This document shows, in pieces, positions 1 to 49,092 of a stretch of DNA of 49,092 nucleotides. Under the pieces are notes generated by a model. It did no database searches. It was not told the DNA's origin and was given only the letters and a program-made list of their open reading frames with translations. Where the stretch lies: the IMG/VR virus record IMGVR_UViG_3300045988_095634. One strand, written 5' to 3'. The stretch is from a virus. How positions within the stretch are numbered: the stretch's first letter is position 1; each line of letters starts with the position of its first letter. The translations under genes and the position numbers were made by a program.

Positions 1-55
1 TAAAATCAAAAAGGGCTAAGCCCTAAGGCTTAACCCTTTTTAATTTTATAATGCG
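1..55. repeat. 55-bp terminal overlap, identical to 49038-49092 (circular-assembly signature)
   Basis: Bases 1-55 (taaaatcaaaaagggctaagccc...ataatgcg) recur exactly as the last 55 bases of the window. Confidence 0.9.
8..41. terminator. Bidirectional hairpin terminator downstream of the integrase gene
   Basis: AAAAAGGG-CTAAGCC-ctaa-GGCTTAA-CCCTTTTT. The long stem has one mismatch and A/T runs on both sides. Confidence 0.7.
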
Positions 56-1611
56 CTTGACGGCGCAAAAGCTGAACCTTTGCAACCGTCACCACTGACA
101 GCGCCTTCCACCAGTTTGAGATCAACCTTGCAATTCTCTCCTGAGTAATTCATCACTAAAACCAGATGATCGTCGTCGTACAAATAGACGGAATTTAGGA
201 ACGTATCGACCAACATAATGCGGTACGCCTCGTCGTTTATATCTCCAGAGCGGAACCTCTCTAAAAAGTAGATAATTTGATCCCGCTCGAACTCTGGCTC
301 TGCTAAGAGCTCGTGAGCTATTCCCTTTTCAATGTCCGCGCGATCAGCCTCCAGCTCCATGAGCCGGGTTTTTGTACTCGGGGTAATTATGCCGGCTTCA
401 ATGGCTGCCAGCATGTTGCTGATTGCTTTCTCGTTTTCTTTCTGCCGGATCTCCAGCGCATGAAGGCCGGACTGATCCTTTTCTCTTTTCTGGTACTCCA
501 TGACGCGATCGGCAATCTGCTCGATCAGTTCGTCGTTGTGTACGATCTTGACAAGCTCGCCGACAACAAGGTCCTCGATCCAGTCTTTAGGCACCGACTC
601 CTTCTTGCAGCTCCGGCCGCGCTTGCGCTTCGTACATGAGTAATAGGCGTATGCTTTCCCGGTGTGGCTGGTGCCGCCGTCGCCTATCATCGGAGAACCA
701 CAAAGCCCGCAAAACAATTTTGTTGTAAGCAGGAAATTTTGCGCCTTGCCTCTGGCCGGTGCGTCGTGGTTTATTTTTAGCATTTTCTGAACCCTCTCAA
801 ATAGATCCCGATCGGTAATTATGGCCGGGATCCCATTCTCGACATAAATGTCCTCATACTCATAGACACCAATATATTTTTTATTCGATAGAATACGCCG
901 GAGGCTGTTCTTGTTGAATTTACCGCCCCGGCTCGTCCGGTAGCCCTCTGAGTTTAGTCTCTCGTATATATCCTTCGCGCGCTCACCCTCGGCATACTCC
1001 TCGAAGATCCTGCGAACGATAGCGGCCTCGGCCTGATCTACCATATAGCGACCGTCTGGGCCGGTTTTCAACCCGAGGCAGGTCTTTCCCAGTGTTTTGA
1101 GCTCCAGCGCGCTGTCGTAGTTGCCGCGCTTCACGTTCTGGGCGAGGTTTTCGCTGTAATACTCAGCGTAGCCCTCCATTACTGACTCTAATATAATACC
1201 CTCCGGGCCGTCCGGTATGGTCTCTTTTGCGTAGAAAATACGGATCCCGTTCTTTTTGAGCTTATATTTATACATGGCTGAGTCGTACCGGTTCCGGGCA
1301 AAACGGTCCATTTTCCAGAGCAGAACGCAGTTAAAACGGCCCTTCTCGCTGTCCTTCATCATTCTTTGAAAGTCTGGCCGCCGGTCCACTCGTCCAGTCA
1401 TTGCCTTGTCGATGTATTCGCCTATGACAATAATGCCGTGCTTTTTGGCGAACTCGTAGCAGTCGCGGAGCTGTCCCTCGATCGACTCCTCACGCTGGCC
1501 GCTGCTGGAATATCTTGCGTATATGACCGCCCGTAATGGCTCTACGCCGCAGGAATTATCCGAGCTACCTCCTGCGGCATATTTTCGAGCCGTGTTTTTA
1601 CCTGTCGGCAT
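46..1611 (-). CDS. Large serine recombinase (phage integrase)
   Basis: N-terminal resolvase motif VIYARYSSSGQREESIEGQ, recombinase domain, Cys-rich zinc ribbon (CGLCGSPM...YYSC) and a C-terminal coiled coil. 521 aa. Confidence 0.9.
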   Translation of the reverse strand: MPTGKNTARKYAAGGSSDNSCGVEPLRAVIYARYSSSGQREESIEGQLRDCYEFAKKHGIIVIGEYIDKAMTGRVDRRPDFQRMMKDSEKGRFNCVLLWKMDRFARNRYDSAMYKYKLKKNGIRIFYAKETIPDGPEGIILESVMEGYAEYYSENLAQNVKRGNYDSALELKTLGKTCLGLKTGPDGRYMVDQAEAAIVRRIFEEYAEGERAKDIYERLNSEGYRTSRGGKFNKNSLRRILSNKKYIGVYEYEDIYVENGIPAIITDRDLFERVQKMLKINHDAPARGKAQNFLLTTKLFCGLCGSPMIGDGGTSHTGKAYAYYSCTKRKRGRSCKKESVPKDWIEDLVVGELVKIVHNDELIEQIADRVMEYQKREKDQSGLHALEIRQKENEKAISNMLAAIEAGIITPSTKTRLMELEADRADIEKGIAHELLAEPEFERDQIIYFLERFRSGDINDEAYRIMLVDTFLNSVYLYDDDHLVLVMNYSGENCKVDLKLVEGAVSGDGCKGSAFAPSSAL

Positions 1612-2843: not shown

Positions 2844-3083
2844 ATGGCAGAAATTTATAAAACCGACTACATCGAGATCAAAAAGATCATGGCAGAGAAA
2901 GAAATCAAAACAATTAAGGAGCTCGCGGAGAAAACCGGGATCAATAGAAACACACTTAGCAACATATTAAACGGGAAAGTGCAGCCCTCGTCCGACGTCA
3001 TGGAAAAGCTCGTATTTTCTCTGGAGATCCCGCCAGAAAAGGCCGGCCGTATTTTTTTTAGCCTTATCTTACGCACCGCGTAA
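2844..3083 (+). CDS. Cro-like XRE HTH protein
   Basis: HTH segment ELAEKTGINRNTLSNILNGK. 79 aa, AAGGAGG ribosome binding site, divergent to the repressor. Confidence 0.8.
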   Translation: MAEIYKTDYIEIKKIMAEKEIKTIKELAEKTGINRNTLSNILNGKVQPSSDVMEKLVFSLEIPPEKAGRIFFSLILRTA

Positions 3084-5474: not shown

Positions 5475-5562
5475 CGGCGTACTTATTACCCTGATTATTT
5501 GCGTAACGCTGGTAATTATCAGCTACAACAACAAAGGTGGAAAAGACAACGACAAAAAGTAA
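5467..5562 (+). CDS. Possible 31-aa single-pass membrane peptide
   Basis: GTG after GGAGGTGG. Hydrophobic core VLITLIICVTLVII followed by a basic tail. Below the ORF-track length cutoff. Confidence 0.35.
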   Translation: MSNGVLITLIICVTLVIISYNNKGGKDNDKK

Positions 5563-5578
5563 AGGAGGCGCGCGACAC

Positions 5579-5857
5579 ATGGCCGAAGAATACAGCCGCA
5601 AGGCGGTTTTTGAGATACTGGGCCAAGAGGTCTCAGACAAAGAAATGCAGCGGGCTGAGTCTTATGCAGACAGAAAGCTCGAGCGAGCCACAGAAATGCA
5701 GCCAGAGGACGCGGCGACGTACCGCTCCGGCTGGTACCGTGTTTTGCTGGTGGCCGATCTGGTGAAACAGCTCGCCTTCCAAGACTTCACGCTCGCCCTC
5801 TGCGAGCTGAGAAACTACGAACCAAAAGGAGGCATACAGACCAATGCAAACACATGA
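5579..5857 (+). CDS. Hypothetical protein
   Basis: ATG at 5579 preceded by AAGGAGG, in frame within the 5537-5857 ORF. Confidence 0.6.
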   Translation: MAEEYSRKAVFEILGQEVSDKEMQRAESYADRKLERATEMQPEDAATYRSGWYRVLLVADLVKQLAFQDFTLALCELRNYEPKGGIQTNANT

Positions 5858-6635
5858 GGACATAAAAAGGGCCAGACGCCCAGAACGTCCAGCCCAAGTG
5901 ACCGCGAAGAAGGAGACGGTGCTCTCGCCTGAGCCCGTCCATAATTTCAAAGATCACAGAGAAATTATAGCACGAAAACGCAGAAAAGCCAATAGGCGCC
6001 GCGAGGTTTTCCTTGCCAGACTGGCAGCAGGCGCCGCTCTGGTGCTCGTTGTGACCGTTACCGTGAGTCTGGTATCTTGCAGCAAGAAAAAAGAACCGGT
6101 AAACGCTCCGGCAGCAGAAACAACAGCGACACCGCAGGAGACTACTCTCATAATTCAGGACGAAACACAGCCAGACGGCTACTACTTCGCATATCTGACA
6201 GAGGACGGAGAACCCCACGCGGTAAATATGGAGGAGCTTGCGAGATCGTGGGCCTCTGAGGCCGGTTTTGAACTCCGGTACGAGCTGACAGACGCCGAGC
6301 GCTACGAGGTGGCCCAGATCGTCACAGCAGAGGCCGAGGGCGAACCGCTTGCAGGTAAAATTGCAATTTGCCAGTGTATCCTGCAGGCATGTGAGGACGA
6401 CGGGATCCGACCGGCAGAGGCAGCAGCCCGCTACTCCTATTCCAAGAAAAGACCGGAGCCGTCAGTGGAGGCAATGCAGGCCGTTCGGTATGTGTTTGAC
6501 TTTGGAATGACAGCAAGCACCGAGCCGATCAAATACTTTTACAATCCCGATCTTGTGGCGAGTAAGTTCCACGAGTCACAGCGCTACATAATGACAATTA
6601 ACAACCACCGCTTCTATGCGGAGAAGGAGGACTAA
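5844..6635 (+). CDS. Membrane-anchored SleB/CwlJ-like cell-wall hydrolase
   Basis: Basic N-terminus, TM segment AAGAALVLVVTVTVSLVSC, and a C-terminal VTAEAEGEPLAGKIAICQCIL segment resembling the Hydrolase_2 (AEARGEP) motif. Confidence 0.55.
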   Translation: MQTHEDIKRARRPERPAQVTAKKETVLSPEPVHNFKDHREIIARKRRKANRRREVFLARLAAGAALVLVVTVTVSLVSCSKKKEPVNAPAAETTATPQETTLIIQDETQPDGYYFAYLTEDGEPHAVNMEELARSWASEAGFELRYELTDAERYEVAQIVTAEAEGEPLAGKIAICQCILQACEDDGIRPAEAAARYSYSKKRPEPSVEAMQAVRYVFDFGMTASTEPIKYFYNPDLVASKFHESQRYIMTINNHRFYAEKED

Positions 6636-7685
6636 ATGCAACCGATAGTAAACGACTTTTTCTGCGGCTGCGGAGGCATGGGCGTCGGGTTCCTTAATGC
6701 TGGCTATAAAATAGCCGGGGCGTGGGACTTTGACAAATATGCGGTGCAAAGCTACGACCACAACGTCGGGCACCATGTAAAGCAGGCAGATATTAAAGAA
6801 ATGACATGGCAAGACGTCCCTTTTGCTCATGTTTGGGCTTTTGGGTTCCCTTGTCAAGATCTGAGCGTTGCCGGTAAGCGAGCCGGGCTACTGCTCAAAT
6901 GCCAAGATTGCGACAGCGATTTTGCTATTGATCCGAGCAATTTCACGGGACAGACAACCTGCCCGAGCTGCGGATCTAAAAACTATAAAGCAGCCAGTCG
7001 CTCCGGGTGCTTCTATGAAATAATGCGCCTGATTGATGAAACCAGAGAACACGCACCGAGCTCACTCCCCGCCGTGCTTGTCGCGGAAAATGTAAAAGGC
7101 TTAACTCCGTATATTCCAGTGCTTGCGGCTGAATTAAAACAGCGCGGATATATCGCCCACGTTAAATTATATAACTCAAAATTTTGGAATGTAGCACAGA
7201 ACCGGGAACGCTACTACATAGCAGCCACCAGAGACGACCTGCAGGACGTTTTGCAAATGCCAGAGCAGAACGAAGATCCTGAAAAGGTTCCCAAACTATC
7301 GCTTTTTCTGGACGATAACGTCCCAGAGAGATTTTACATTCCAAACGAAAAAGCCCAGAAAATTATCGAGCAGGCGCTCAAAAAGCTGGAGGAACTCGGG
7401 AAAGTACATGCAACTATTACGCCAGACCGTATCGAGAAAAGGCAAAACGGGCGGCGATCCAAAGACGACGAGGAGCCAATGTTTACACTTACAGCTCAGG
7501 ATCTCCACGGTGTAATTATCCAAACCGAGGAGGACGACGAAAACGGCATTATTGTCTCTGAGATATGCAACGAGACTGGTCTGCTGGATCCAAACGGCTG
7601 CGGTAAAACCCTCCGAGTTGGCGGGGGGGGGTCATTGACCAAGAAGCACAACTACCAGCACATACTGTTGAGCACATCGGAATAA
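6636..7685 (+). CDS. DNA cytosine-5 methyltransferase, N-terminal portion (frame lost at a G9 run)
   Basis: Motif I FFCGCGGMGVGF, motif IV GFPCQDLSVAG, motif VI ENVKGL. The sequence after the G9 run (7623-7631) continues sensibly only in the -1 frame. Confidence 0.8.
   Translation: MQPIVNDFFCGCGGMGVGFLNAGYKIAGAWDFDKYAVQSYDHNVGHHVKQADIKEMTWQDVPFAHVWAFGFPCQDLSVAGKRAGLLLKCQDCDSDFAIDPSNFTGQTTCPSCGSKNYKAASRSGCFYEIMRLIDETREHAPSSLPAVLVAENVKGLTPYIPVLAAELKQRGYIAHVKLYNSKFWNVAQNRERYYIAATRDDLQDVLQMPEQNEDPEKVPKLSLFLDDNVPERFYIPNEKAQKIIEQALKKLEELGKVHATITPDRIEKRQNGRRSKDDEEPMFTLTAQDLHGVIIQTEEDDENGIIVSEICNETGLLDPNGCGKTLRVGGGGSLTKKHNYQHILLSTSE
7623..7631 (+). repeat. Poly-G (G9) tract inside the C5-methyltransferase
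   Basis: gcGGGGGGGGGtc. The reading frame changes from frame 0 to frame 2 at this run. Confidence 0.95.
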
Positions 7686-7828
7686 CGGTGACGGATTACG
7701 CCACCAATTTGCAGAAATTCACCGATACAGCAAATTGCCTTCAGGCAAGAGACTCGAAAGGCTTCGGGCGTCAAGGCATGACTGCTGTCATTGAAATATC
7801 AAAGGAGGACGAAAATGCCAAAACTTGA
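7631..7828 (+). pseudogene. C5-methyltransferase middle fragment (target-recognition region) in the -1 frame
   Basis: Translates to ...TANCLQARDSKGFGRQGMTAVIEIS..., which is typical C5-MTase variable-region sequence. Not reachable from the upstream frame as written. Confidence 0.6.
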
Positions 7829-7937
7829 AATGATCGGCTTACTGGATATAAAGGGGCAAGACTCCGTTCGGCGAGTGTACGATCCTGACGGTCTGGCCCC
7901 TACCCTTACGACTTGCGGGGGGGGTGTAGACAAGTGA
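7815..7937 (+). pseudogene. C5-methyltransferase fragment with its own RBS and ATG, terminated just after a G8 run
   Basis: AAAGGAGG then ATG. Translates to MPKLEMIGLLDIKGQDSVRRVYDPDGLAPTLTTCGGG (conserved PTLT..GG motif), then a stop 11 nt after the G8 run. Confidence 0.6.
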
Positions 7938-8353
7938 AAATTTTAGATAAAAAACGATACAGAGTCAGAAAGCTAACCCCAACGGAATACGGACGCCTGC
8001 AGGCGTTTCCTATGGAGCATTGGGAGCAGGTAGTCTCAGACTCTCAGGCTTATAAGCAATTCGGCAATGCAGTAACCACAACCGTTGCAACCGGCGTAGC
8101 TGAGTCGATAACGAACTTTTTGAGCCGCGTCGGAATATTAAAGGAGGACACCACAATGGAAGAAATGAACAAAGCAACCAGCGCTCAGGCGCAGACTGAA
8201 AACCCGGCCATAGCCCAGATAACTGCTATTTTGCAGCCTAAAAAGGAAAGACTCACAGAGCTCATGAACGAAGAAAGTCAGCTCAGAACAGAGGTTGAGG
8301 CTCTCGAGCTTGCTATTTCAACAATTCAGAACGGAGGGAAAGAAAATGCCTAA
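7913..8353 (+). CDS. DNA cytosine-5 methyltransferase, C-terminal portion (motifs IX-X)
   Basis: RVRKLTPTEYGRLQAFP and QFGNAV motifs. An in-frame internal RBS and ATG at 8156 could also express a 65-aa coiled-coil tail separately. Confidence 0.75.
   Translation: MRGGCRQVKILDKKRYRVRKLTPTEYGRLQAFPMEHWEQVVSDSQAYKQFGNAVTTTVATGVAESITNFLSRVGILKEDTTMEEMNKATSAQAQTENPAIAQITAILQPKKERLTELMNEESQLRTEVEALELAISTIQNGGKENA
7917..7924 (+). repeat. Poly-G (G8) tract inside the C5-methyltransferase
   Basis: tgcGGGGGGGGtg. A second frame 0 to frame 2 break at a G run. Confidence 0.95.
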
Positions 8354-8975
8354 GTTAATTCAGACAACCACAACAGAGACAGAAACAACATGGAAAGGAC
8401 TCGCTAACCTGATAAAAGGAGGCGGCGGCACATTAAAGATCGGCGACATTATCACAGAGAAAACCCTCGACGGTGAGGAAATGGATCTCGTAGTCGTTGA
8501 CATGGGCCCGGACTGGGCTCGCTTCGAGAGCAAGGACTGCCTGCCGGTGGAAGTAGCCTACAACCAGAACAACAGAAACACCGGCGGCTTCGCAGACTCA
8601 GACGTCAAGCGCTACTTAAACGAGGAAGTTTTCAATAATCTGCCAGAGGATCTTCGCAATGTGATCGCCGAGGTTGAGCGTAAGCAGGAAAACGGCGAGA
8701 GCTCACTCTGCCGCCTCTTTTTACCTACCGAGTCGGAGCTGTTCGGGGACTGCTGCTATTCAGAGGACGACACATACAACCAGATCGAATACTACAAAGA
8801 CCGCCGCAACCGTATCAAGTGCAACAGAAAAGGTGGATCACCTGATTGGCACTGGACCGCTTCTGTCAGGAGTGGCAACTCGACTTATTGCGTGTACGTC
8901 ACCAGCTACGGGCACTCCGGCCACTGGCACGCCGGCGGCGAGCTTTGCGTCCCGGTCTGCTTCGTAATTCAGTAA
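8346..8975 (+). CDS. DGR target protein 2: small non-structural protein with a C-type-lectin/DUF1566-like variable C-terminus
   Basis: GGAGGG ribosome binding site then ATG. The C-terminus WHWTASVRSGNSTYCVYVTSYGHSGHWHAGGELCVPVCFVIQ is paralogous to the tail-fibre C-terminus. Its last 111 bp match the TR with adenine-only mismatches. Confidence 0.85.
   Translation: MPKLIQTTTTETETTWKGLANLIKGGGGTLKIGDIITEKTLDGEEMDLVVVDMGPDWARFESKDCLPVEVAYNQNNRNTGGFADSDVKRYLNEEVFNNLPEDLRNVIAEVERKQENGESSLCRLFLPTESELFGDCCYSEDDTYNQIEYYKDRRNRIKCNRKGGSPDWHWTASVRSGNSTYCVYVTSYGHSGHWHAGGELCVPVCFVIQ
8853..8963 (+). repeat. DGR variable repeat 2 (VR2)
   Basis: 111 bp align without gaps to TR 39946-40056. All 15 mismatches are at TR adenines. 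Confidence 0.9.
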
Positions 8976-8985
8976 ATCATAAATC

Positions 8986-9005
8986 CCGCCGCCTTTGTGC
9001 GGCGG
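8986..9005 (+). other. GC-rich hairpin downstream of VR2 (candidate DGR target-recognition stem-loop)
   Basis: CCGCCGC-ctttgt-GCGGCGG, 23 nt after the VR2 end. No T-run follows. Confidence 0.5.
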
Positions 9006-9024
9006 CATAAGGAGGAGAAACCAC

Positions 9025-9828
9025 ATGCAAGAAGAACAGAAAGAAACCGCAGCGGGCTCCCCGGTTGCCTCATTCCAGACGCGGCGGGACAAACCGATCG
9101 AGGTAATGAGCCTGCAGGAGAAATTCATCGAACTGCGGCGCCAGATCCCGAGGATTGAAAAGGGCCAGCACAGCGAGGAGGTTCCCTATAAGTTTGCAAA
9201 GATTGACGACGTCTGGAGAGCTATCACTCCCACGATGAATGAGCTCGGCGTCAACTTCGACATTATTCAGGAGGAAAACGCCCAAATTAAAACCATGAAC
9301 ACGCAGCACGGCGGCCTTATGTTCCTTTATGAGTCCGATCTGACAATGCGCTGGACCAATGCAGACAACGAGGACGACACCGACGAGGCCCAGACTCATG
9401 CAATCGCATGGAACGACGATCCGGCCAAAGCTAAAGGCAGCGCGTGGACCTATGCTATAAAATATTATCTTTTTGAAAAATTCAGCATTGACATGGGCGA
9501 GACTGATCCAGACATGAAGGGCAAGCCAAGCGCTCAAACAGCCTCACAGCCGGTCAGAAATGCCGCAGGCAACCAACAGAGCCAACAAGGCAATAAAACC
9601 GCTCAGAGCGGTCAGAATGGAGCCGAGAAAAAGCTCACAGCGGCCCAGCTCGACAGAATGTACCGGAAAGCTCAGGACGCCGGGCTCTCCAAAGAGCAGA
9701 CAGACGGCAGGATCAATTATTTATACAGCAAGAAACCAGCCGACATGACTCGGGCAGAGTATGACGACATTTGCAAGCGCATGGACGACACAGCCAGAGA
9801 GCTGAGGAATGGAGGAAATAGACAGTGA
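9025..9828 (+). CDS. ERF-family single-strand annealing recombinase
   Basis: YKFAKIDDVWRAITPTMNELGV and KAKGSAWTYAIKYYLFEKF segments typical of ERF. GGAGGAG ribosome binding site. Sits next to ssb. Confidence 0.75.
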   Translation: MQEEQKETAAGSPVASFQTRRDKPIEVMSLQEKFIELRRQIPRIEKGQHSEEVPYKFAKIDDVWRAITPTMNELGVNFDIIQEENAQIKTMNTQHGGLMFLYESDLTMRWTNADNEDDTDEAQTHAIAWNDDPAKAKGSAWTYAIKYYLFEKFSIDMGETDPDMKGKPSAQTASQPVRNAAGNQQSQQGNKTAQSGQNGAEKKLTAAQLDRMYRKAQDAGLSKEQTDGRINYLYSKKPADMTRAEYDDICKRMDDTARELRNGGNRQ

Positions 9829-12064: not shown

Positions 12065-12628
12065 ATGAGTGCAACAAACAGAGGAAGCACCAGAAAACCG
12101 CACGACTTCTACCCTACACCGATCCCGACGATCGAGACATTTCTCGACGTTTTCCCTCTGAGGGGGGGGATCGAGGTGCTGGAACCGGGAGCAGGTAGCG
12201 GCAACATAATCAAGACACTACAAAAATACGGCGATTTTTCGATCGACGCGGTGGAGATCAGACCGGAGGAGGCACAACACTTGCAGGATCTCGGTGTCAA
12301 TGTGATTATTGACGACTTCCTGAGCATGGACCTCGGGAAAAAGTACGATCTTATCATCGGCAACCCGCCATTTAATCAGGCGATCGAATTTGTTGAGAAA
12401 AGTCTCGGGCTACTTAAACCGGGCGGCAGGCTCATTTTCCTGCTCCGCACCGCGTTCATGGAAAGCGACCAGCGTTTTGAGTTCTGGCAGCAGGAAGATC
12501 ACCAGCTCGCCGGACTCTACACCCTACATAAGCGCCCGAGCTTTACCGGACATGGAACAGACGCCACGAGCTACTCATGGTTCGTATGGCAGCCCGGCAG
12601 CAGTCGCCAGACAATAAAAATTATTTAA
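12065..12628 (+). CDS. N6-adenine DNA methyltransferase (NPPF type)
   Basis: FYPTP, SAM motif VLEPGAGSGN and catalytic IIGNPPF. AAGGAGG ribosome binding site before the ATG at 12065. Confidence 0.8.
   Translation: MSATNRGSTRKPHDFYPTPIPTIETFLDVFPLRGGIEVLEPGAGSGNIIKTLQKYGDFSIDAVEIRPEEAQHLQDLGVNVIIDDFLSMDLGKKYDLIIGNPPFNQAIEFVEKSLGLLKPGGRLIFLLRTAFMESDQRFEFWQQEDHQLAGLYTLHKRPSFTGHGTDATSYSWFVWQPGSSRQTIKII
12162..12169 (+). repeat. Poly-G (G8) tract near the 5' end of the NPPF methyltransferase (in frame as written)
   Basis: ctgaGGGGGGGGatc, encoding RGG just upstream of the SAM-binding motif. Confidence 0.95.
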
Positions 12629-39486: not shown

Positions 39487-39897
39487 ATGAGTAACGTATA
39501 CACCAGAAACCGTAAAAAGACGCCGTTCGACGTCCTTGCGAACGCCGAGAAACTTCAAGATCTTGTAACGCTCTATGTTATGAATGAGAGGTATGTGCCT
39601 AAAAAGTGGCGCTTTATGATCGGTCAGGATCTTATCAAGAAAATTGACGAGCTGAACGACAACATAATCGCCGCGAACAGTATCTATGCCATGAATGAGC
39701 AGGATCTCGCGAGCCGTAAGGCATACGCCCAAAAGGCGATCGCGAACGGCTACCAATTACAGAGAAAACTCTCCCGTCTTATCAGGTGCGTGCCTTCGGC
39801 CACGGCCGCAAGCCTCGAAGAAATCACGAACTTATTGAGTCAAGAGATCGACGACCTGAAAGGCTGGAGGAAAAACGACAAAATAAGAGCCAGATAA
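39487..39897 (+). CDS. avd: DGR accessory variability determinant (Avd-like four-helix-bundle protein)
   Basis: 136-aa basic protein between VR and TR. The VPKKWRFMIGQDLIKKIDELNDNIIAANSIY pattern resembles Avd and 23S-IVS-type proteins. Confidence 0.75.
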   Translation: MSNVYTRNRKKTPFDVLANAEKLQDLVTLYVMNERYVPKKWRFMIGQDLIKKIDELNDNIIAANSIYAMNEQDLASRKAYAQKAIANGYQLQRKLSRLIRCVPSATAASLEEITNLLSQEIDDLKGWRKNDKIRAR

Positions 39898-39928
39898 TAA
39901 ACTCGGGTTATTTGCTGAAAAGTGTCAC

Positions 39929-40057
39929 GCGGCCGCTGCAACTGGTGGACCGCTTCTGTCAGGAGTGGCAACTCGACTAATTGCGTGAACGTCAACAACA
40001 ACGGGAACTCCAACAACTGGAACGCCAGCAACGAGCTTTACGTCCCGGTCTGATTCC
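39929..40057 (+). repeat. DGR template repeat (TR)
   Basis: Non-coding copy of the VR, rich in AAC. It has 11 AAY codons in the VR frame and an in-frame TGA, and lies between avd and the RT. Confidence 0.92.
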
Positions 40058-40287
40058 ACCTATATGCCAGACAGAGTAGAAAAATCGAAATCAGTGCCAG
40101 AGTGGAAGGAAGGAGCAAATAACCCTCGCCGTCAAGGCGTAAATAAGAGCCCAGACGCTACCGGGTGGACGCTGCTTGCATGGCGCGGAGTTTGTGCGAG
40201 TTCTCCGCGTTTCATACCCGTTGTACTATGCGGCTAATTAAACGCATGACAGCCGTGCTGGGTAATAACAAAGGAATGAGTTAAATT

Positions 40288-41427
40288 GTGACAAGCGAAG
40301 AAAGACGAGAACAACGATACCAGAGACGAAAAGCCGCAAGGCTGAAAAAGAGGCAGGAAACAATCGGGAAATATGATGATTTTGAGCGCGTGGCCTCACT
40401 GAACTCTCTGTATGAAGCAGCAAGGGAAGCCTCGAAGGGCGTCGACTGGAAAGCCAGCGTCCAGAGGTACAACTCTTTGCTGCTTTTTAATATATCCAAA
40501 ACACGCGCCGAGCTGCTTGCTGGAAAAGATATACGCCGCGGCTTTATCTGTTTTGATATATGCGAACGCGGCAAGCTGAGGCACATCAAAAGCGTGCATT
40601 TTTCCGAGAGAGTTGTGCAAAAATCATTTTGCACCAACATCATATACCCCACTTTCACCCGCTCCCTGATTTATGACAACGGGGCGAGCCAGCAAGGAAA
40701 AGGCACCCAGTTCGCGACCAACAGACTGACGACTCACTTGCGGAGGCATTTCAGGAAATACGGACGCGAAGGCGGCATACTTCTGATTGACTTCTCGGAC
40801 TACTTCGGGAATGTGGCGCATGAGCCACTTTTTGAGATATACCGGCAGATCTTCACGGATCCACGCGTCATAGCTCTGGGAATGAGCTTTATTTCTGCCT
40901 TCGGCGATAAAGGCCTCGGGCTGGGAAGTGAAACGAGCCAGATTAACGCCGTAATGCTTCCAAACCGCGCGGACCATTACGCGAAGGAAGTGCTCAGGAT
41001 CCGTGGCTATGGCAGATATATGGACGACACCTATCTGCTGCACCATAGCATTGCATACCTCGAGGAATGTCTCGAAAAACTCCGGGCGATATACTCGGAA
41101 TATGGCATAGTTATCAATGAGAAGAAAACAAAAATTGTAGACCTCAAACACGGGTTTACATTTTTGAAAACTCATTTTTATATCACAGAAACCGGCCGGA
41201 TCATCAAAAAGCCGTGCCGTGACAGTATCACCAGAGAACGCCGAAAGCTGAAAAAGCAGGCGGATCTCGTAGCTTCTGGCGTCCTGACCTTCGACGAGGT
41301 TCGGCACTCCTACGCCTCATGGCGTGGCAGCATGTCGCACCGGGACGCATACAGAACCGTGCAAAGCATGGACCGCCTATTTAATAGGCTGTTTATAGAT
41401 CAATGGAAAGGAGGACCACAACCATGA
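40288..41427 (+). CDS. DGR reverse transcriptase
   Basis: GTG start. RT motifs SQQGKGTQFA, LLIDFSDYFGNV and YGRYMDDTYLL (YxDD). About 230 nt downstream of the TR. Confidence 0.9.
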   Translation: MTSEERREQRYQRRKAARLKKRQETIGKYDDFERVASLNSLYEAAREASKGVDWKASVQRYNSLLLFNISKTRAELLAGKDIRRGFICFDICERGKLRHIKSVHFSERVVQKSFCTNIIYPTFTRSLIYDNGASQQGKGTQFATNRLTTHLRRHFRKYGREGGILLIDFSDYFGNVAHEPLFEIYRQIFTDPRVIALGMSFISAFGDKGLGLGSETSQINAVMLPNRADHYAKEVLRIRGYGRYMDDTYLLHHSIAYLEECLEKLRAIYSEYGIVINEKKTKIVDLKHGFTFLKTHFYITETGRIIKKPCRDSITRERRKLKKQADLVASGVLTFDEVRHSYASWRGSMSHRDAYRTVQSMDRLFNRLFIDQWKGGPQP

Positions 41428-41645
41428 GAACCAGAGAAGAAATGGAGGCAGAAATCAGAGGCTTACAGCAGTTACTCGCTGCGACAGATTATAAGGCTCT
41501 GAAACATGCCGACGGCGCCCTCACAGACGAGGAGTACGAGCCGACACGCACCCAGCGAGCTGAATATCGTCAGCAGATCAATGACCTGCAGGCAGCGATT
41601 GAGACGCTCGAGACCACCGAAGGGCAGGTGGTAGACAATGAGTAA
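41424..41645 (+). CDS. Small coiled-coil hypothetical protein
   Basis: ATG after AAAGGAGG. 73 aa. Overlaps the RT stop by 4 nt. Confidence 0.55.
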   Translation: MRTREEMEAEIRGLQQLLAATDYKALKHADGALTDEEYEPTRTQRAEYRQQINDLQAAIETLETTEGQVVDNE

Positions 41646-44949: not shown

Positions 44950-45027
44950 CTATTTCCGCGTGAAGTTTACCACCACGGCGAACACTTTCTTGAAAAAGTA
45001 CACCGGGTTCGGCTTCGCGCCATTGAG

Positions 45028-45112
45028 TGCGGAAGATGGGACTTGAACCCACACGATTGCAATAATCACAAGATCCTTAGTCTTGCTCGTCTGCCAGTTC
45101 CGACACTTCCGC
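45028..45112 (-). tRNA. tRNA-Leu (type II, long variable arm), anticodon read as AAG
   Basis: Minus strand GCGGAAG-TG-...-CAAGA-CTAAGGA-TCTTG-(16-nt variable arm)-GTGGG-TTCAAGT-CCCAT-CTTCCGC-A. 85 nt, no encoded CCA. Confidence 0.85.
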
Positions 45113-45209
45113 ATGTATTTTGTTTTCGCCGCTTGTCTCACGCGACTCGTATATAATATCAGATTGTTTTCAAAAATGCAAGCACTTTTTTCAAAAAAAT
45201 CATATTTTT

Positions 45210-45818
45210 TTACAGACTCTTTTCATAGCACAAAAACGGCTGCCCAAACAGGCTGCATTCACCCACTGTATCAAATCCAAACACTGCATACGAGCGCAGA
45301 GCCTTCACATTGAGCTTGTTGACTAAAAAATGCACACTTTTGTATCCTCTCCTTGCGAGTTCTTCCATCCCAAATACCAGCATTTGTCTCGCAATTTTCT
45401 GATTCTGAAAATCTGGATGAACCGCAAGTCTTGAAAGCTCAGCCCCGGGTGCCAGTTTATGGCTCCAGCAATCAAGCCTCTCCACCTGTGGATCATCATC
45501 AATTGAAATCGCTGCGATAATTCTGTCCTCTTTGCTTCCGGCATCAGCATTAATCTCCTGCCCATCAATCATTACAAACAAAGATTCTCTACCAAGATCA
45601 AACTCAATCTCCTTCATTCCCGGATAAGAATCGTCCCATGGACAAAACTCCCTGCCTAGCTGTATCTTATACAATTTTAAAATTTCTTCTTTATTTTCTT
45701 CTGTAGCTGCTACTATTTTTCTCATTCTGTTTCTCATTTCCTTTATTTTCCCATGTGCATCGTTCTCTTCTGTTACACGATTATCTTTATCATAGACTAT
45801 CTTTGCAACATAGCCCAT
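45210..45818 (-). CDS. GNAT-family N-acetyltransferase
   Basis: Acetyl-CoA motif A: LSRLAVHPDFQNQKIARQMLVFGMEELARRGY. 202 aa. Low-GC region. Confidence 0.8.
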   Translation of the reverse strand: MGYVAKIVYDKDNRVTEENDAHGKIKEMRNRMRKIVAATEENKEEILKLYKIQLGREFCPWDDSYPGMKEIEFDLGRESLFVMIDGQEINADAGSKEDRIIAAISIDDDPQVERLDCWSHKLAPGAELSRLAVHPDFQNQKIARQMLVFGMEELARRGYKSVHFLVNKLNVKALRSYAVFGFDTVGECSLFGQPFLCYEKSL

Positions 45819-46127
45819 CGTTTCTTACTTCCGCAACTAAAAAGTCCATTACAATACACATAACATCTCTGTATATTGTAACGGACTTTTTTCAAACCCA
45901 GACTTGGTGCAAGCACCATTTCTGATAAAAACCTCGAAAGTTTTTGTTCTATGTGCATATATTACCTAATTTCATTCACAAAGTCAATATATTTTCTGCT
46001 AAATTTTCAAATACCATTTATGTTTTGGATTATTATTTTGCCCCTTAATATATTGTATTACCCCACTAATGAATCTATACGCTTCAGCAATAACCTGATT
46101 TTTTTAACTGTTTTGAGATTTATAGTG

Positions 46128-46452
46128 ATTTCAGCTACTTTTTGGGCTGGGTTTGGGAGCTGTTTTGGGGATTTCTGCAGTTTCAGCTACTTTTTCTCGG
46201 CTTTTTTCCAGCTTTTTGGCTGAGTTCGGGAGCTGTTTTGGGGATTTCTGCAGTTTCAGCTACTTTTTCTCGGCTTTTTTCGGCTTTTTGGCTGAGTTTG
46301 GGGAGCTGTTTTGGGGATTTCTGCAGTTTCAGCTACTTTTTGCCGGTTTTTTTCCGGCTTTTGGCTTGGTTTGGAGAGCTGTTTTGGGGATTTCTGCAGT
46401 TTCAGCTACTTTTTGCCGGTTTTTCTCCGGCTTTTGGGCTGAGTTTGGGTTG
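46128..46452. repeat. Tandem repeat array, about 4.5 units of 63-83 bp
   Basis: Core AGCTGTTTTGGGGATTTCTGCAGTTTCAGCTAC at 46158, 46221, 46304 and 46377, plus a partial copy at 46128. The inter-core segments are also mutually similar and differ mainly in T-run lengths. Confidence 0.85.
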
Positions 46453-46848
46453 TTCCTTCTCCACCTCGTCGGTACGAAGTCTGAACTGCCTCTTTTAGCA
46501 TTCTGGCCTGCGCATCTTCTGTGATTCGCTCATGTTTCTCGAGTCCAATAATTCGATCCAACAGGTAATACCAATATTGACTGGACATAATTCCTGAAGA
46601 GGAGGAGTGTTACCTCATTTCTTTGTAAAATGTTCTTCGACTGTTTTGTCTAGGGCTTTCTGCTTCTTTCTGCAATCTGGCAAGCTTCTCCGACATCGTT
46701 TCTGCCTTGTCCATTGAAGTATCTGTGTCGCCATATTCCCGGTGACAAGAAAGATATATCTTATAAAATTTCCGAACCGGATGATGAAAACAGAGTTTAA
46801 AGCACGACCGTTTTACCTTTCAAAGTTTCGATTTTGGAGCTCATTTCC

Positions 46849-48579
46849 TTATTTCACCAGCATCTCATATGTAACCCCATACTTCTGCGCAATCTCGCTT
46901 GCATAGGATTTCCCTTCCGGAGGCGCCACTTCAACCTGATAGGAGCGCTCTGTCCCCTTCATGTGCACGATCATGGAAAACGCTTCCCCATCTGTGTGCT
47001 CTGCCTTCTGCTGCTCTTCATTCATTTCCTCCACATCAAATGCCAGCTTATGCATATGTGTATTATAAATGGTCCTCATTCCCTTATGTAAAATTGCCCT
47101 GACACTGTCCTTGGCAATGTAGTATCCCTCTTCAAACGAAGTGGTAGAAAATGATTCATTCATCAAAAGCAGACTCCTGCTGTCAGCCTCCTCATAGATT
47201 GCCTTAAAACGCTTACATTCTTCCCCAAGCCTTCCTAAATCCAATGTCTTGTCCTCATCAGCTGGGAAATGGGTGTAAATACCTGTAACAGGGGAAAATG
47301 TAAATGCTTTTCCCGGAATATATATGCCACCCTGCGCCAACACAAACAACTGCCCAACAGCCTGTGTAATTGTCGTCTTTCCACCTCGGTTGGCACCTGT
47401 TAAGATGTACACTCTCCTATTCCGGTCGAAATCCATATCATTCGGTACAATATTCCCAGACTCCTCTGTCTCAAAAACAGCAAGCTTTAAATTGTAAATT
47501 CCACGTGCCTGCATCATATACGGATCAGATTCATTTTCTCCCTCTTTATATACAGAAGCTTTAGCAAAGGTAAAGCCCTGTTCCTGCAATTTTTGGATGT
47601 ACTCCGCCCATTTGATATAGTAGAGCAGCTCCGGAATCAAGTCTGTCATGTCGGTAATGGTAATAGAAACATATTTGTTCAGTACTTCTCTGACTCTTTT
47701 CACCATATGGGAAATCATATGGTTGACGATTCGGTCTGTATAACGAGTCACATCCTTTGCCTGATCTCCCTCGGGAAGCTTCACAATGCCACCCCGGCTT
47801 TCCGACCGCATAACAGCTGTATCCATCACCTTCTGCATATGAGTGCTAATCACCGCATCTGCATTCACATCAAACGGCTGAAATTTGAAATTCTTTTTCC
47901 ATATGGTATCCTCATTGATCCGATCCTTTGACGCAATATGGTCATAAAAATTGCCCAGGATTCCGGACTTGGTAAAATATTTGCTGTTCACAGATATCAG
48001 ACCGATTCCGTCCGCTTCAAAGCGGTCATTCAAGTTAATACCTACTGTAATGCTCTTAAGCTGTGAAGTGTCCATTTTCAGTTCTGAGATATCTTTTTTC
48101 AGTTCTGCAAATCCGTTGTCCGCATAGATTTTCTCCACATAGGCTTTTAAACCCAGAAAGCCTGCGGAGTGAATGTCCGAAGCTGCCAGACATGTATGAA
48201 TCGCATCCACACACTTGATATAATCATTAAGCTCGTCCAGCCGATGCAACAGATCCCAGATGCAGGCACTCTCATCATATTCCCGGTTAAAGCTGCCGTA
48301 CTCCCTCAGAAAGCTGATGCGCTCGAGTATTTCCATAAGATCATCACGCATTTTTTTCTGTTGAAGGACATCCTCGAAAATATCGCAGCGGTACTGTGTC
48401 ACCGCCGGATCTGCATATATACGCGCCATCACGTTTTGGATGAAGTTCTGCTCCCGCTCCTTTGCTGACAGCTTTTTGCAGATTTGATCCATCCCCAGAT
48501 CATGCATAGTCACATCACTCAATGTCCGGTATTGTGCATTTGTATCCGGGTATAATAAACTGTATTTTTTCTGACTCAT
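46849..48579 (-). CDS. MutS-domain-V (ABC-type) ATPase lacking a recognisable mismatch-binding domain
   Basis: Walker A GANRGGKTT and Walker B-like LLLMNESFSTTS, with an N-terminal helical region. The likely start is the ATG at 48579, preceded by AGGAGAGG; the track start at 48612 is in frame upstream. Confidence 0.8.
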   Translation of the reverse strand: MSQKKYSLLYPDTNAQYRTLSDVTMHDLGMDQICKKLSAKEREQNFIQNVMARIYADPAVTQYRCDIFEDVLQQKKMRDDLMEILERISFLREYGSFNREYDESACIWDLLHRLDELNDYIKCVDAIHTCLAASDIHSAGFLGLKAYVEKIYADNGFAELKKDISELKMDTSQLKSITVGINLNDRFEADGIGLISVNSKYFTKSGILGNFYDHIASKDRINEDTIWKKNFKFQPFDVNADAVISTHMQKVMDTAVMRSESRGGIVKLPEGDQAKDVTRYTDRIVNHMISHMVKRVREVLNKYVSITITDMTDLIPELLYYIKWAEYIQKLQEQGFTFAKASVYKEGENESDPYMMQARGIYNLKLAVFETEESGNIVPNDMDFDRNRRVYILTGANRGGKTTITQAVGQLFVLAQGGIYIPGKAFTFSPVTGIYTHFPADEDKTLDLGRLGEECKRFKAIYEEADSRSLLLMNESFSTTSFEEGYYIAKDSVRAILHKGMRTIYNTHMHKLAFDVEEMNEEQQKAEHTDGEAFSMIVHMKGTERSYQVEVAPPEGKSYASEIAQKYGVTYEMLVK

Positions 48580-48653
48580 AAGCTTGTCCTCTCCTTCTGA
48601 TCTAATATGCAATTTTGAACGAAATCCGTATAATTTAGCTTACCCCATTTTAA

Positions 48654-49036
48654 TGCGGAAGATGGAGTGCGGAAGATGTGTTGCAAGACGTCCGGAGGAC
48701 GTCTGTTCTGCGCCGACCGAAGCGGAGCGGAGACCTTGGACCCATGGGGCGCCTGCCACGCAACAACCGAAGCCATGCGGAAGATGGGTTGCAAGACGTC
48801 CGGGGGACGTCTGTTCTGCAACGACCGAAGCGGAGCGGAGACCGAGTGAGGTCCGGGGGACCTCATGCCACGAGCCGACCGAGCCGGAGGCGAGACCTTG
48901 AACCATAGGCACCTGCCCCACAACAATCGGAGTCTTGCGGAAGATGGGGCGCAAGACATCCGGGGGATGTCTGCTCTGCGCCGACCGGAGCGGAGCGGAG
49001 ACCTTGGACCCATGGGGACAAGGTCCGCTTCCGCTT
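48654..49036. repeat. GC-rich repeat array (3 units of about 110-160 bp) with internal hairpins
   Basis: TGCGGAAGATG(G/T)G at 48654, 48668, 48776 and 48936. Each unit carries a GACGTCCGG-r-GGACGTC hairpin and a CGGAGCGGAGACC(T)TGGACCCATGGGG-like segment. Confidence 0.85.
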
Positions 49037-49037
49037 C

Positions 49038-49092
49038 TAAAATCAAAAAGGGCTAAGCCCTAAGGCTTAACCCTTTTTAATTTTATAATGCG
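49038..49092. repeat. 55-bp terminal overlap, identical to 1-55
   Basis: Exact duplicate of the first 55 bases of the window. Confidence 0.9.

Follow-up and report, generated by a model that had tools for sequence, protein, structure and literature searches.

Variable poly-G tracts in a split, multi-module C5-cytosine methyltransferase of a Roseburia phage relative: candidate contingency loci for DNA methylation

We analyzed a viral DNA of 49,092 nucleotides (nt), IMG/VR record IMGVR_UViG_3300045988_095634 (the whole of this stretch is called the window below), focusing on a C5-cytosine DNA methyltransferase locus at 6636–8353 that contains two long runs of G. We propose, with a probability of about 75%, that this locus encodes a naturally split, multi-module C5 methyltransferase whose expression and composition are governed by hypermutable poly-G contingency loci through slipped-strand mispairing. 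The positions and frames of the tracts, their length polymorphism, the conserved split of the enzyme, selection on both of two alternative C-termini and the homology of the modules are shown by the data.

Results

Three poly-G tracts lie in two methyltransferase genes

The window holds exactly three G/C runs of at least 6 nt, compared with 20.8 expected from shuffles. All three are G8–G9 on the coding strand and are found inside methyltransferase genes, which cover approximately 4.6% of the window; they sit in two of the four DNA-methyltransferase genes of the phage. Of the glycine codons in the window, GGG is used least (10.8%). Tract 1 is a G9 run at 7623–7631 and tract 2 a G8 run at 7917–7924, exactly in the coordinates and frames given by the initial annotation, which overlooked the third tract at 12162–12169. 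Roseburia phage Shimadzu (LR596903.1), which is 97.9–98.6% identical to the window over 45 kb, likewise has exactly three G/C runs of at least 6 nt, and these are at the same three sites. Their lengths (tracts 1/2/3) are 8/10/7 in Shimadzu and 9/8/8 in the window, differing at all three.

Pfam PF00145 (C5 DNA methylase) matches both open reading frames (ORFs) of the C5 locus, with E 3e-34 for the N-terminal match and E 2e-12 for the second ORF (profile positions 270–323). The coding pieces run from 6636 to 7685 in frame 0, 7688 to 7828 in frame 2, the ATG at 7815 to a stop at 7937 in frame 0, and 7913 to 8353 in frame 2. Adding one G to the G9 and one to the G8 run gives ORFs of 397 amino acids (aa; 6636–7828) and 179 aa (7815–8353) overlapping by 14 nt, as had been proposed. 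Thus, homopolymers within ORFs set the reading frame. The initial description of a gene broken at two runs by the same shift does not stand: G8 at tract 2 is out of frame, and G9 at tract 1 is in frame for a conserved target-recognition domain (TRD) tail. As encoded, the window genotype reads as an intact 349-aa alpha subunit, a beta subunit in the OFF state and a separate methyltransferase, bearing an NPPF motif and tract 3, in the ON state.

Tract 1 as a probable selector of alternative alpha C-termini

With G9 at tract 1, the first ORF (ORF-A, 6636–7685, plus strand like all features of the locus) encodes a protein of 349 aa. It matches PF00145 and TIGR00675 dcm (121.9 bits against a cut-off of 100.65) and aligns to residues 16–209 of M.HhaI, which span motifs I–VIII. 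Motif I is at 6657–6692, motif IV (PCQ) at 6843–6866, motif VI (ENV) at 7083–7100 and motif VIII (QNRERYY) at 7198–7218; together with motifs IX and X of the beta subunit, these follow the canonical order of C5 methyltransferases. Between motif IV and the next conserved block lies a CxxC..CxxC zinc-ribbon insert of approximately 30 aa (6897–6986) that is absent from M.HhaI and whose four cysteines are invariant in 34 homologues. Further downstream are a conserved segment, KVHATITPDR..FTLTAQDLHGVII (7401–7520), and TRD module 2, LLDPNGCGKTLRVGGGG-SLTKKHNYQHILL (7581–7682), which is paralogous to the TRD core of the beta subunit (E 7e-4). Tract 1 encodes the glycine loop that follows the TL dipeptide of module 2.

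When tract 1 is G6 or G9, translation proceeds in frame 0 through the module 2 tail SLTKKHNYQHILLSTSE (7632–7685) to the stop at 7683–7685. Initially, sensible sequence after this run was seen only in frame 2; the frame-0 continuation (SLTKKHNYQHILLSTSE*) is itself conserved coding sequence. The frame after the tract is already open at G9, its 19 codons encoding S(L/I)TKKHNYQH(I/V).., and the peptide is present in one frame of all 46 of 46 module-bearing loci. Among 17 distinct homologous 39-nt segments of this KKHNYQH tail, variable sites fall at 13 of 13 third codon positions versus 7 first and 5 second positions. Synonymous and nonsynonymous codon differences number 632 and 402 in frame 0, as opposed to 114/865 and 66/917 in the other frames. 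Many diverged homologues stop a few residues past KKHNYQH, and some interrupt the glycine run (GGKGE, GGNGS, GGDGS, VCGGGS), which locks the frame. Additionally, the protein collection contains 349-aa proteins matching the window ORF and identical over the last 22 residues printed (for example P0123, on 7 contigs), and the exact 349-aa window sequence occurs on two further contigs; SRR5274022 and ERZ28577855 have this very allele. Because the G9 frame is conserved as coding sequence, the G9 run at tract 1 is no break, and ORF 6636–7685 appears to be a bona fide 349-aa alpha subunit. "Repairing" tract 1 to G10 instead yields a different, mutually exclusive C-terminus.

That second C-terminus is module 3, ITVTDYATNLQKFTDTANCLQARDSKGFGRQGMTAVIEISKEDENAKT (7682–7828, stop at 7826–7828), which lies in frame 2 and is joined to alpha only when tract 1 is G7 or G10, through an alternative-frame linker of 19 codons, VIDQEAQLPAHTVEH. 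Between the window and locus L051, module 3 (..CLQARDSKG..AVIE..) differs by 7, 5 and 22 substitutions at first, second and third codon positions, a pattern that indicates purifying selection on the frame it occupies. Module 3 is fixed one frame off the KKHNYQH frame, with no second tract separating the two, in the window lineage as well as in L051, L046 and L052. In L051, from a lineage of 84% identity, the CLQARDYKG motif is preceded by no start codon in the module 3 frame, by our reading of the sequence. Since L051 has neither a start codon for module 3 nor a second tract, G7 or G10 at tract 1 is the only route to the module. Independent translation of module 3 from the GTG at 7688, by reinitiation after the TAA at 7683, was rejected as a general route on account of the missing start codon in L051. 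We likewise rejected a fusion of alpha to beta through a further lesion somewhere between 7685 and 7815, as the stop/ribosome-binding site (RBS)/ATG junction is kept in all tract-bearing relatives examined.

Each of the predicted alpha lengths is represented in the collected proteins. Forms of 332/333 aa correspond to G8 at tract 1, and one such protein, P0121, is found on approximately 150 contigs by itself. Forms of 348/349 aa correspond to G6/G9 (P0123 is an example) and are members of both of the 90% clusters in which these alpha forms fall (representatives P0001 and P0002; 629 and 1161 sequences, respectively), each of which mixes lengths. Forms of 396/397 aa correspond to G7/G10, with P0002 as the representative and P0137, P0138, P0141 and others as members; forms of 394–397 aa with module 3 recur in the protein collection.

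Tract 2 sets the frame of the beta subunit

The second ORF (ORF-B) begins at an ATG (7815–7817) preceded by the putative RBS AAAGGAGGA (7801–7809), both read from the sequence (7801–7817); the ATG overlaps the long alpha form by 14 nt. This start, pointed out in the initial annotation, is conserved in all tract-bearing relatives examined. As encoded at G8, beta is a truncated product of 40 aa, MPKLEMIGLLDIKGQDSVRRVYDPDGLAPTLTTCGGGVDK* (7815–7937), and the same 40-aa ORF is called in L072, L073, L074 and L080–L082. The GGG in the TL..GGG recognition loop of the beta TRD comes from tract 2, which is in frame at G9; in the alignment, TLTTCGGG falls opposite TLSAYGGG of M.HhaI. The remainder of beta (7925–8353, frame 2, ending ..QNGGKENA) matches PF00145 positions 270–323 and contains motif IX, RKLTPTEYGRLQAFP (7967–8011), and motif X, QFGNAV (8057–8074). 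Residues 2–101 of ORF-B align to M.HhaI 224–320, the region around the TL dipeptide and motifs IX and X. Intact 179-aa beta subunits are encoded in L003–L005, L068 and L077 and also occur as P0136 and P0140.

The C-terminal tail of beta is shared with unsplit relatives (P0005, P0009, P0012), and the segment 8157–8353 therefore belongs to the methyltransferase. Within this tail (8142–8353) we observed an RBS-like AAGGAGGA and an in-frame ATG at 8157, from which the helix-rich 65-aa tail could also be expressed alone.

The split is conserved, and the modules are homologous to those of multispecific enzymes

The first ORF of every tract-bearing relative examined ends ..(V/I)IE..K(E/Q).. and the second starts, one frame ahead, from its own ATG behind an RBS. 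The large ORF carries motifs I–VIII with the proximal part of the variable region, and the small ORF carries the distal part with motifs IX–X. On this arrangement the enzyme appears to be genuinely split, M.AquI-like and multi-module, in keeping with the likeness to M.AquI first suggested. Closely related proteins that are unsplit and tract-less, P0005 (532 aa), P0009 (525 aa), P0011 (464 aa) and P0012 (564 aa), have the same N- and C-termini with other TL-type modules, and the number of such modules differs among them.

The split enzyme contains four TL-type segments. Three had been listed initially; the one missed, GKTLRVGGGG, carries tract 1, and one of those listed, PMFTLTAQDLHG, matches a conserved pre-motif-IX element of the Bacillus phage rho11s methyltransferase, not a mapped TRD. 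The suspected resemblance to the multispecific Bacillus-phage enzymes proved to be real homology. Residues 6–43 of ORF-B are 61% identical (38 aa) to rho11s 312–349 and likewise align to SPbeta MtbP 291–328, and the ORF-A segment KVHATITPDRIEKRQNGRRSKDDEEPMFTLTAQDLHGVII is 55% identical (40 aa) to rho11s 394–433. The latter element lies directly before motif IX in rho11s, and KVHATITPDRIEKRQNGRRSKDDEEPMFTLTAQDLHGVII may for this reason not be a TRD. Module M3 of relatives (..NPSGHGMNGSVYFAEGLAPTLTTNKGEGIK..) looks, on visual inspection, like rho11s 351–390. The modules are thus homologous in sequence to those of the SPR/phi3T/rho11s/SPbeta group, in which one polypeptide methylates several targets; here the enzyme is divided between two ORFs.

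Tract lengths vary among near-identical genomes

Relatives were gathered from IMG/VR, from metagenome contigs (6 of which were found to have the tract-1 pattern) and through the ENA/Logan gene index. Across 25 assemblies of the window lineage, tract 1 was 6 (1 locus), 7 (2), 8 (16) or 9 (6) nt long, with G10 additionally present in L069; tract 2 was 7 (4), 8 (9), 9 (7) or 10 (5) nt long; and tract 3, in 15 loci, was 7 (4), 8 (8) or 9 (3) nt long. Thirteen of the assemblies were retrieved by their tract-1 state (L071 through P0002, L072 and L073 through the window ORF, and L074–L083 through P0121), so that their tract-1 lengths are biased and those of their other tracts are not. Tract-1 lengths in the 13 assemblies free of this bias were 9, 8, 6, 8, 9, 8, 9, 8, 8, 8, 7, 10 and 9. 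The ten contigs with an identical 333-aa alpha had 8, 10, 7, 9, 10, 10, 8, 8, 8 and 10 at tract 2 and 8, 8, 8, –, 9, 9, 8, 8, 8 and 7 at tract 3.

Length change at the tracts exceeds other mutation. In 13-kb blastn comparisons, relatives of 97.5–99.1% identity showed 107–327 substitutions and only 0–4 gap columns, and the gap count equalled the summed differences in tract length for pairs aligned as a single high-scoring segment pair (L001, L079, L081 and L072/window, each versus L074; the comparison is one of counts). Moreover, tract lengths differ between copies of the gene that are only 1–3 substitutions apart in 1701 nt (L067/L083, L076/L078/L080 and window/L067). The comparison with orthologues proposed in the initial annotation found both varying tract lengths and a near-absence of lesions away from the tracts. 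One locus, L068, is (7, 9) at tracts 1 and 2, and the state with both runs "repaired", as first proposed, thus exists in nature. Recurrence of the same tract lengths on different backbones offers only indirect support for high-frequency, reversible switching. We also observed two singleton deletion variants, P0003 and P0010: one fuses the long alpha to a downstream DUF6273 protein with loss of beta, and the other lacks the whole variable region.

These length differences bear on the suggestion that a fixed genotype yields full-length proteins through slippage on G GGG GGG, either by the ribosome (programmed –1 frameshifting) or in transcription. The sequence formally fits X XXY YYZ, and RNA-polymerase slippage on long homopolymers could make OFF genotypes leaky. 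A programmed site, however, needs a fixed slippery heptamer and a downstream stimulatory structure, and here the length of the tract varies, in-frame genotypes exist in nature for every junction, and RNA folding downstream of the three tracts gave no structure beyond shuffled controls (z-scores –0.9, +1.9 and –0.4). We consider programmed slippage very unlikely. A promoter and terminator scan of 5500–9200 gave nothing interpretable on the coding strand.

Tract positions persist in distant homologues

Homologues approximately 60–65% identical in the N-terminal domain have 2–4 poly-G tracts, of G5–G13, at homologous protein positions. The first of these sites follows GKTLRV, the next is 49 nt beyond it and follows ..NP, and the site in the second ORF follows APTLTT(S/C). 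The sources of the tract-bearing homologues are IMG/VR contigs, together with genomes or metagenome-assembled genomes bearing the labels Lachnospiraceae, Acetatifactor, Oscillospiraceae, Clostridiaceae Marseille-Q4145 and Bacteroides. Members that are nearly identical to one another differ mainly in tract length: L012 (7, 8, 8), L014 (8, 8, 9), L017 (7, 7, 9), L033 (7, 9, 9) and L037 (9, 9, 8). The loci, 562 kb in total, hold 89 G/C runs of at least 7 nt, and this gene accounts for 71 of them, a count biased by the loci being centred on it. More distant single-ORF homologues are tract-less and code the same glycine motif with GGC, GGT or GGA, which suggests that the tracts are a feature of codon choice.

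In a sister lineage, a second tract (1b) lies between modules 2 and 3, and a large cluster of 4926 sequences has as its representative P0021, an in-frame form of 407 aa that contains both modules. In P0085, an unsplit relative, modules 2 and 3 are in one frame and lead directly into motif IX.

Poly-G runs were also observed outside the methyltransferase gene. In the sister lineage, a variable run (G7–G10) is found 5 nt before the TTG start of a putative regulator gene (L013:8946, L016:9135, L017:11559, L021:9574, L035:9015, L037:9944), where it may act as a Shine-Dalgarno sequence. A recurrent run (G7–G11) is located in a small hypothetical gene upstream of the methyltransferase (L017:299, L026:2565, L046:8183, L009:343), in frame in L046 and L009, and a G8 run is in frame in a PAPS-reductase-like gene at L020:1579. 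Several genes of these phages seem to employ poly-G tracts.

Two further readings can be weighed against these data. The first is that the runs were under-called in assembly, the true genome being G10 plus G9 and the gene intact. Homopolymers are the classic place for consensus indel errors, and the window taken alone is compatible with this. Against it, ENA scaffold L072 and Logan contig L073 have the same sequence as the window, with 9/8/8 in all three, and the length call is therefore reproducible between assemblers. The gene is likewise out of frame in Shimadzu, which was assembled from PacBio data and polished with Illumina, and tracts of G5 to G13 occur among dozens of independent assemblies. 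Although the 13-kb comparisons span a T8 run (3052–3059), the gaps in the tallied pairs are fully accounted for by poly-G differences. Finally, the existence of the tracts and their conserved position at approximately 60% identity, set against genome-wide avoidance of G/C runs, are not properties that an assembly could create. We find miscalling scarcely credible.

The second reading, a decaying pseudogene in which frameshifts gather at homopolymers by chance, could draw on the two singleton deletion variants and on the majority of sampled genomes having at least one tract out of frame. Apparent upstream breaks are also present in the methyltransferase genes of L005 and L006. Most genes of the window lineage that were examined, however, have no lesions besides tract changes, and the segments flanking the tracts are all open. 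Purifying selection was detected in every segment tested, the architecture persists over approximately 40% protein divergence, and tract changes recur on backbones only 1–3 substitutions apart. Decay is, on this evidence, barely plausible. Slipped-strand phase variation is thus the one of the three explanations first put forward that the comparative data favour.

Tract 3 lies in a second methyltransferase gene

The third tract (12162–12169, plus strand) is an in-frame G8 that encodes R-G-G codons near residues 33–35 of a 187-aa NPPF-type DNA methyltransferase (12065–12628, plus strand), which is in frame and hence ON. This protein matches phrog_799 'DNA methyltransferase' (E 2e-46) and, weakly, the Pfam families MTS and Eco57I; its motif I is VLEPGAGSGN and its motif IV GNPPF. 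In Shimadzu, where tract 3 is G7, the annotated gene begins downstream of the tract. A GTG is found 6 nt past the tract, and tract 3 could serve as a Shine-Dalgarno sequence for the 150-aa form annotated as Shimadzu orf48. In relatives, we observed a 401-aa PAPS-reductase-family gene either after the NPPF methyltransferase (L075:12005–13002) or in its place (L077:11455–12660). This alternation points to a swappable DNA-modification slot.

The locus is carried by a Shimadzu-like temperate phage

From its similarity to Shimadzu, the window appears to be the genome of a Shimadzu-like temperate Roseburia phage that is common in the human gut. The genome of Shimadzu, a temperate myophage, contains four methyltransferase genes and a diversity-generating retroelement. 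Its methyltransferase region is 94% identical to that of the window, compared with a genome average of 98%. Its annotation gives the C5 gene as two fragments, orf41 and orf42, and starts orf48 downstream of the third tract; the text of the Shimadzu paper mentions neither methylation, homopolymers nor frameshifts, nor any of orf41, orf42 and orf48. In the window, by synteny to Shimadzu orf23–orf24, a diversity-generating retroelement (Avd, reverse transcriptase) is located beside the tail-fibre gene at approximately 39,490–41,430. With the retroelement and the poly-G tracts, one phage combines two targeted diversification systems.

The window ends are identical over approximately 55 bases (1–55 and 49038–49092), the signature of a circular assembly path, and the repeat includes a terminator-like hairpin directly downstream of a serine integrase gene (46–1611, minus strand). 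Approximately 4.1 kb (45032–49092 plus 1–51), between the lysis region and the integrase, is not present in Shimadzu. A tRNA-Leu(aag) gene (45027–45112) is at the junction of this segment, which contains a GNAT acetyltransferase (45210–45818, minus strand), a 73-bp tandem repeat of 4.3 copies (46138–46449), a MutS-domain-V ATPase (46849–48612, minus strand) and a 160-bp repeat of 1.8 copies (48712–49003). The segment is either phage cargo or host flank included in a spurious circular path. L072, whose methyltransferase region is identical to that of the window, is 45,082 bp long.

Discussion

By analogy with established homopolymeric contingency loci, we infer that the poly-G tracts change length by slipped-strand mispairing at DNA replication, reversibly and at high frequency, that the assembled enzyme is active, and that its specificity changes with tract state. 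Tract 2 would act as an on/off switch, G9 giving the 179-aa beta and any length that is not a multiple of three giving truncation at approximately 40 aa; with beta truncated, as it is at G8 here, no active C5 enzyme should form. Tract 1 would act as a three-way selector of the alpha C-terminus. At G6/G9, the state of the window, module 2 would be completed and followed by a stop (349 aa); at G7/G10, the module 2 tail would be swapped for the linker and module 3 appended (396/397 aa); and at G8 an immediate stop would leave 333 aa. Because motifs IX and X are supplied in trans by beta, a frameshift in alpha would only alter which recognition modules are present, and the set of methylated sites would probably change. 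Tract 3 would independently switch the NPPF methyltransferase on and off.

A phage population would then hold a reversible mixture of methylation states. A plausible benefit is hedging between hosts whose restriction is blocked by the mark and hosts whose restriction is triggered by it; this bet-hedging, or alternatively a variable methylation of the lysogen chromosome, is speculative. We see an even chance that the full scheme applies, in which tract 1 swaps the specificity set (none, module 2 or module 3 besides the beta module), tract 2 gates all activity and tract 3 gates an independent methyltransferase, so that phage and lysogen gain a combinatorial, heritable and reversible methylome.

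Several observations weigh against this interpretation. Tract 2 is in frame in only 7 of 25 sampled assemblies, and the polymorphism in tract length was seen between assemblies. The linker VIDQEAQLPAHTVEH is open over only 19 codons, which is weak evidence by itself. In an AlphaFold2 model of the 349-aa alpha (built on a 34-sequence alignment), the catalytic domain is confident, and the predicted local distance difference test (pLDDT) score is below 50 at residues 250–349, leaving the module assignments without structural support. Additionally, the commonest sampled state of tract 1 (G8, 333 aa) has neither alternative tail. Truncated alpha forms might be inactive, making tract 1 a plain on/off switch.

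Plain on/off switching at tract 1 is a serious rival. According to this explanation, the tracts are real contingency loci, each of which only switches expression; a single alpha form is active, the other frames are OFF and specificity is unchanged. Such behavior is usual for poly-G in phase-variable methyltransferases. It would also suit the roughly random distribution of tract 1 states across lineages, with approximately 8 of 25 loci in the conserved frame, and the variable region of alpha is not confidently modelled. In contrast, two mutually exclusive C-termini are both under purifying selection, in lineages without a second tract between them. The frame is locked on the short tail in diverged homologues, whereas forms of 394–397 aa with module 3 recur as well, and with motifs IX and X provided in trans, truncation of alpha need not abolish catalysis. 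For these reasons we regard plain on/off switching as unlikely and prefer selection among C-termini by tract 1.

The phase-variable methyltransferases known so far are mainly those of mucosal pathogens, and the case for contingency loci in phages is a recent one. The present finding extends such loci to a temperate phage that is prevalent and belongs to a major butyrate-producing commensal of the gut. A single alpha allele is found on some 150 contigs, and relatives occur on contigs labelled Lachnospiraceae, Oscillospiraceae and others. If the proposed mechanism is correct, gut phages would hedge between restriction blocked by a methyl mark and restriction triggered by it, lysogens may gain a phage-borne switch of host methylation, and recognition modules selected by frameshift would be a compact means of switching the specificity of a C5 methyltransferase. 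Relatives with 3–4 tracts would have even more methylation states. In practical terms, genes of this kind are now annotated as fragments (Shimadzu orf41, orf42 and orf48), and tract lengths should be handled as phasotypes in gut virome and methylome work, not polished away.

Naturally split C5 enzymes and complementation between their fragments are known, and the arrangement of M.AquI has been defined (PMC3404938). The present enzyme is similar to M.AquI in having adjacent, overlapping ORFs with motifs I–VIII together with a portion of the variable region in alpha and the distal variable region with motifs IX–X in beta; the likeness is one of motif and ORF arrangement. Unlike M.AquI and M.EcoHK31I, it coexists with related unsplit versions (P0005, P0009, P0011, P0012) and has poly-G in both subunits. 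Similar to the multispecific enzymes of Bacillus phages (SPR, phi3T, rho11s and SPbeta MtbP), it has several TL-type modules between motifs VIII and IX. The Bacillus-phage enzymes, however, are single polypeptides without homopolymer tracts, whereas this one is split and tract-controlled, and the conserved pre-IX element stands in a different order with respect to the TRDs. MtbP methylates GGCC (PMC8270828), and by analogy the beta-subunit module might be GGCC-type.

Bacterial phase-variable methyltransferases, such as the Type III mod genes, the poly-G-bearing Type IIG cj0031 of Campylobacter (PMC4889913) and the poly-G/C restriction-modification genes of Helicobacter (PMC3936762, PMC4209511), share a homopolymer within the methyltransferase ORF whose length changes shift the frame, and they produce population heterogeneity in methylation. 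In contrast, the system described here belongs to a temperate phage of a gut Firmicute, has no restriction partner nearby, and is a split C5 enzyme with two tracts (2–4 in relatives), one of which appears to pick recognition modules rather than to turn the enzyme on or off.

A related case is the Type I system NgoAV of Neisseria gonorrhoeae, in which a poly-G tract in hsdS reportedly changes specificity (Adamczyk-Poplawska et al. 2011). In that system, a one-base homopolymer change truncates the specificity determinant and alters specificity without abolishing activity. NgoAV differs in that the affected protein is a Type I S subunit encoded on a bacterial chromosome, whereas here phage C5 TRD modules would be affected and the alternatives lie in different frames.

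Among phages, contingency loci have been described in T2/T4 (preprint PMC12633550), and the same preprint cites poly-G tracts in receptor-binding proteins of Fletchervirus (Sorensen et al. 2021, as cited in PMC12633550) and, for Bordetella phage BPP-1, a methylase gene that contains a poly-G tract (Liu et al. 2004, as cited in PMC12633550). These loci resemble ours in being hypermutable homopolymers in phage genes for which bet-hedging has been proposed. The T-even and Fletchervirus loci differ in affecting glucosylation, rII or receptor binding. We found that the only G/C run of at least 7 nt in the BPP-1 genome (C8 at 29922) is in the adenine methyltransferase gene bpm; BPP-1 also has a diversity-generating retroelement, as does Shimadzu, but it has a single tract, in an adenine methyltransferase.

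Bacterial phase-variable methyltransferases, phage poly-G contingency loci, and split and multispecific C5 enzymes are thus already known, while neither a split C5 methyltransferase with several tracts nor recognition modules chosen by a tract turned up in our literature search. Nor did the search turn up the combination described here: several tracts in a split, multi-module C5 methyltransferase, together with a second tract-bearing methyltransferase, in a prevalent family of gut temperate phages, with two conserved alternative C-termini apparently selected by one tract.

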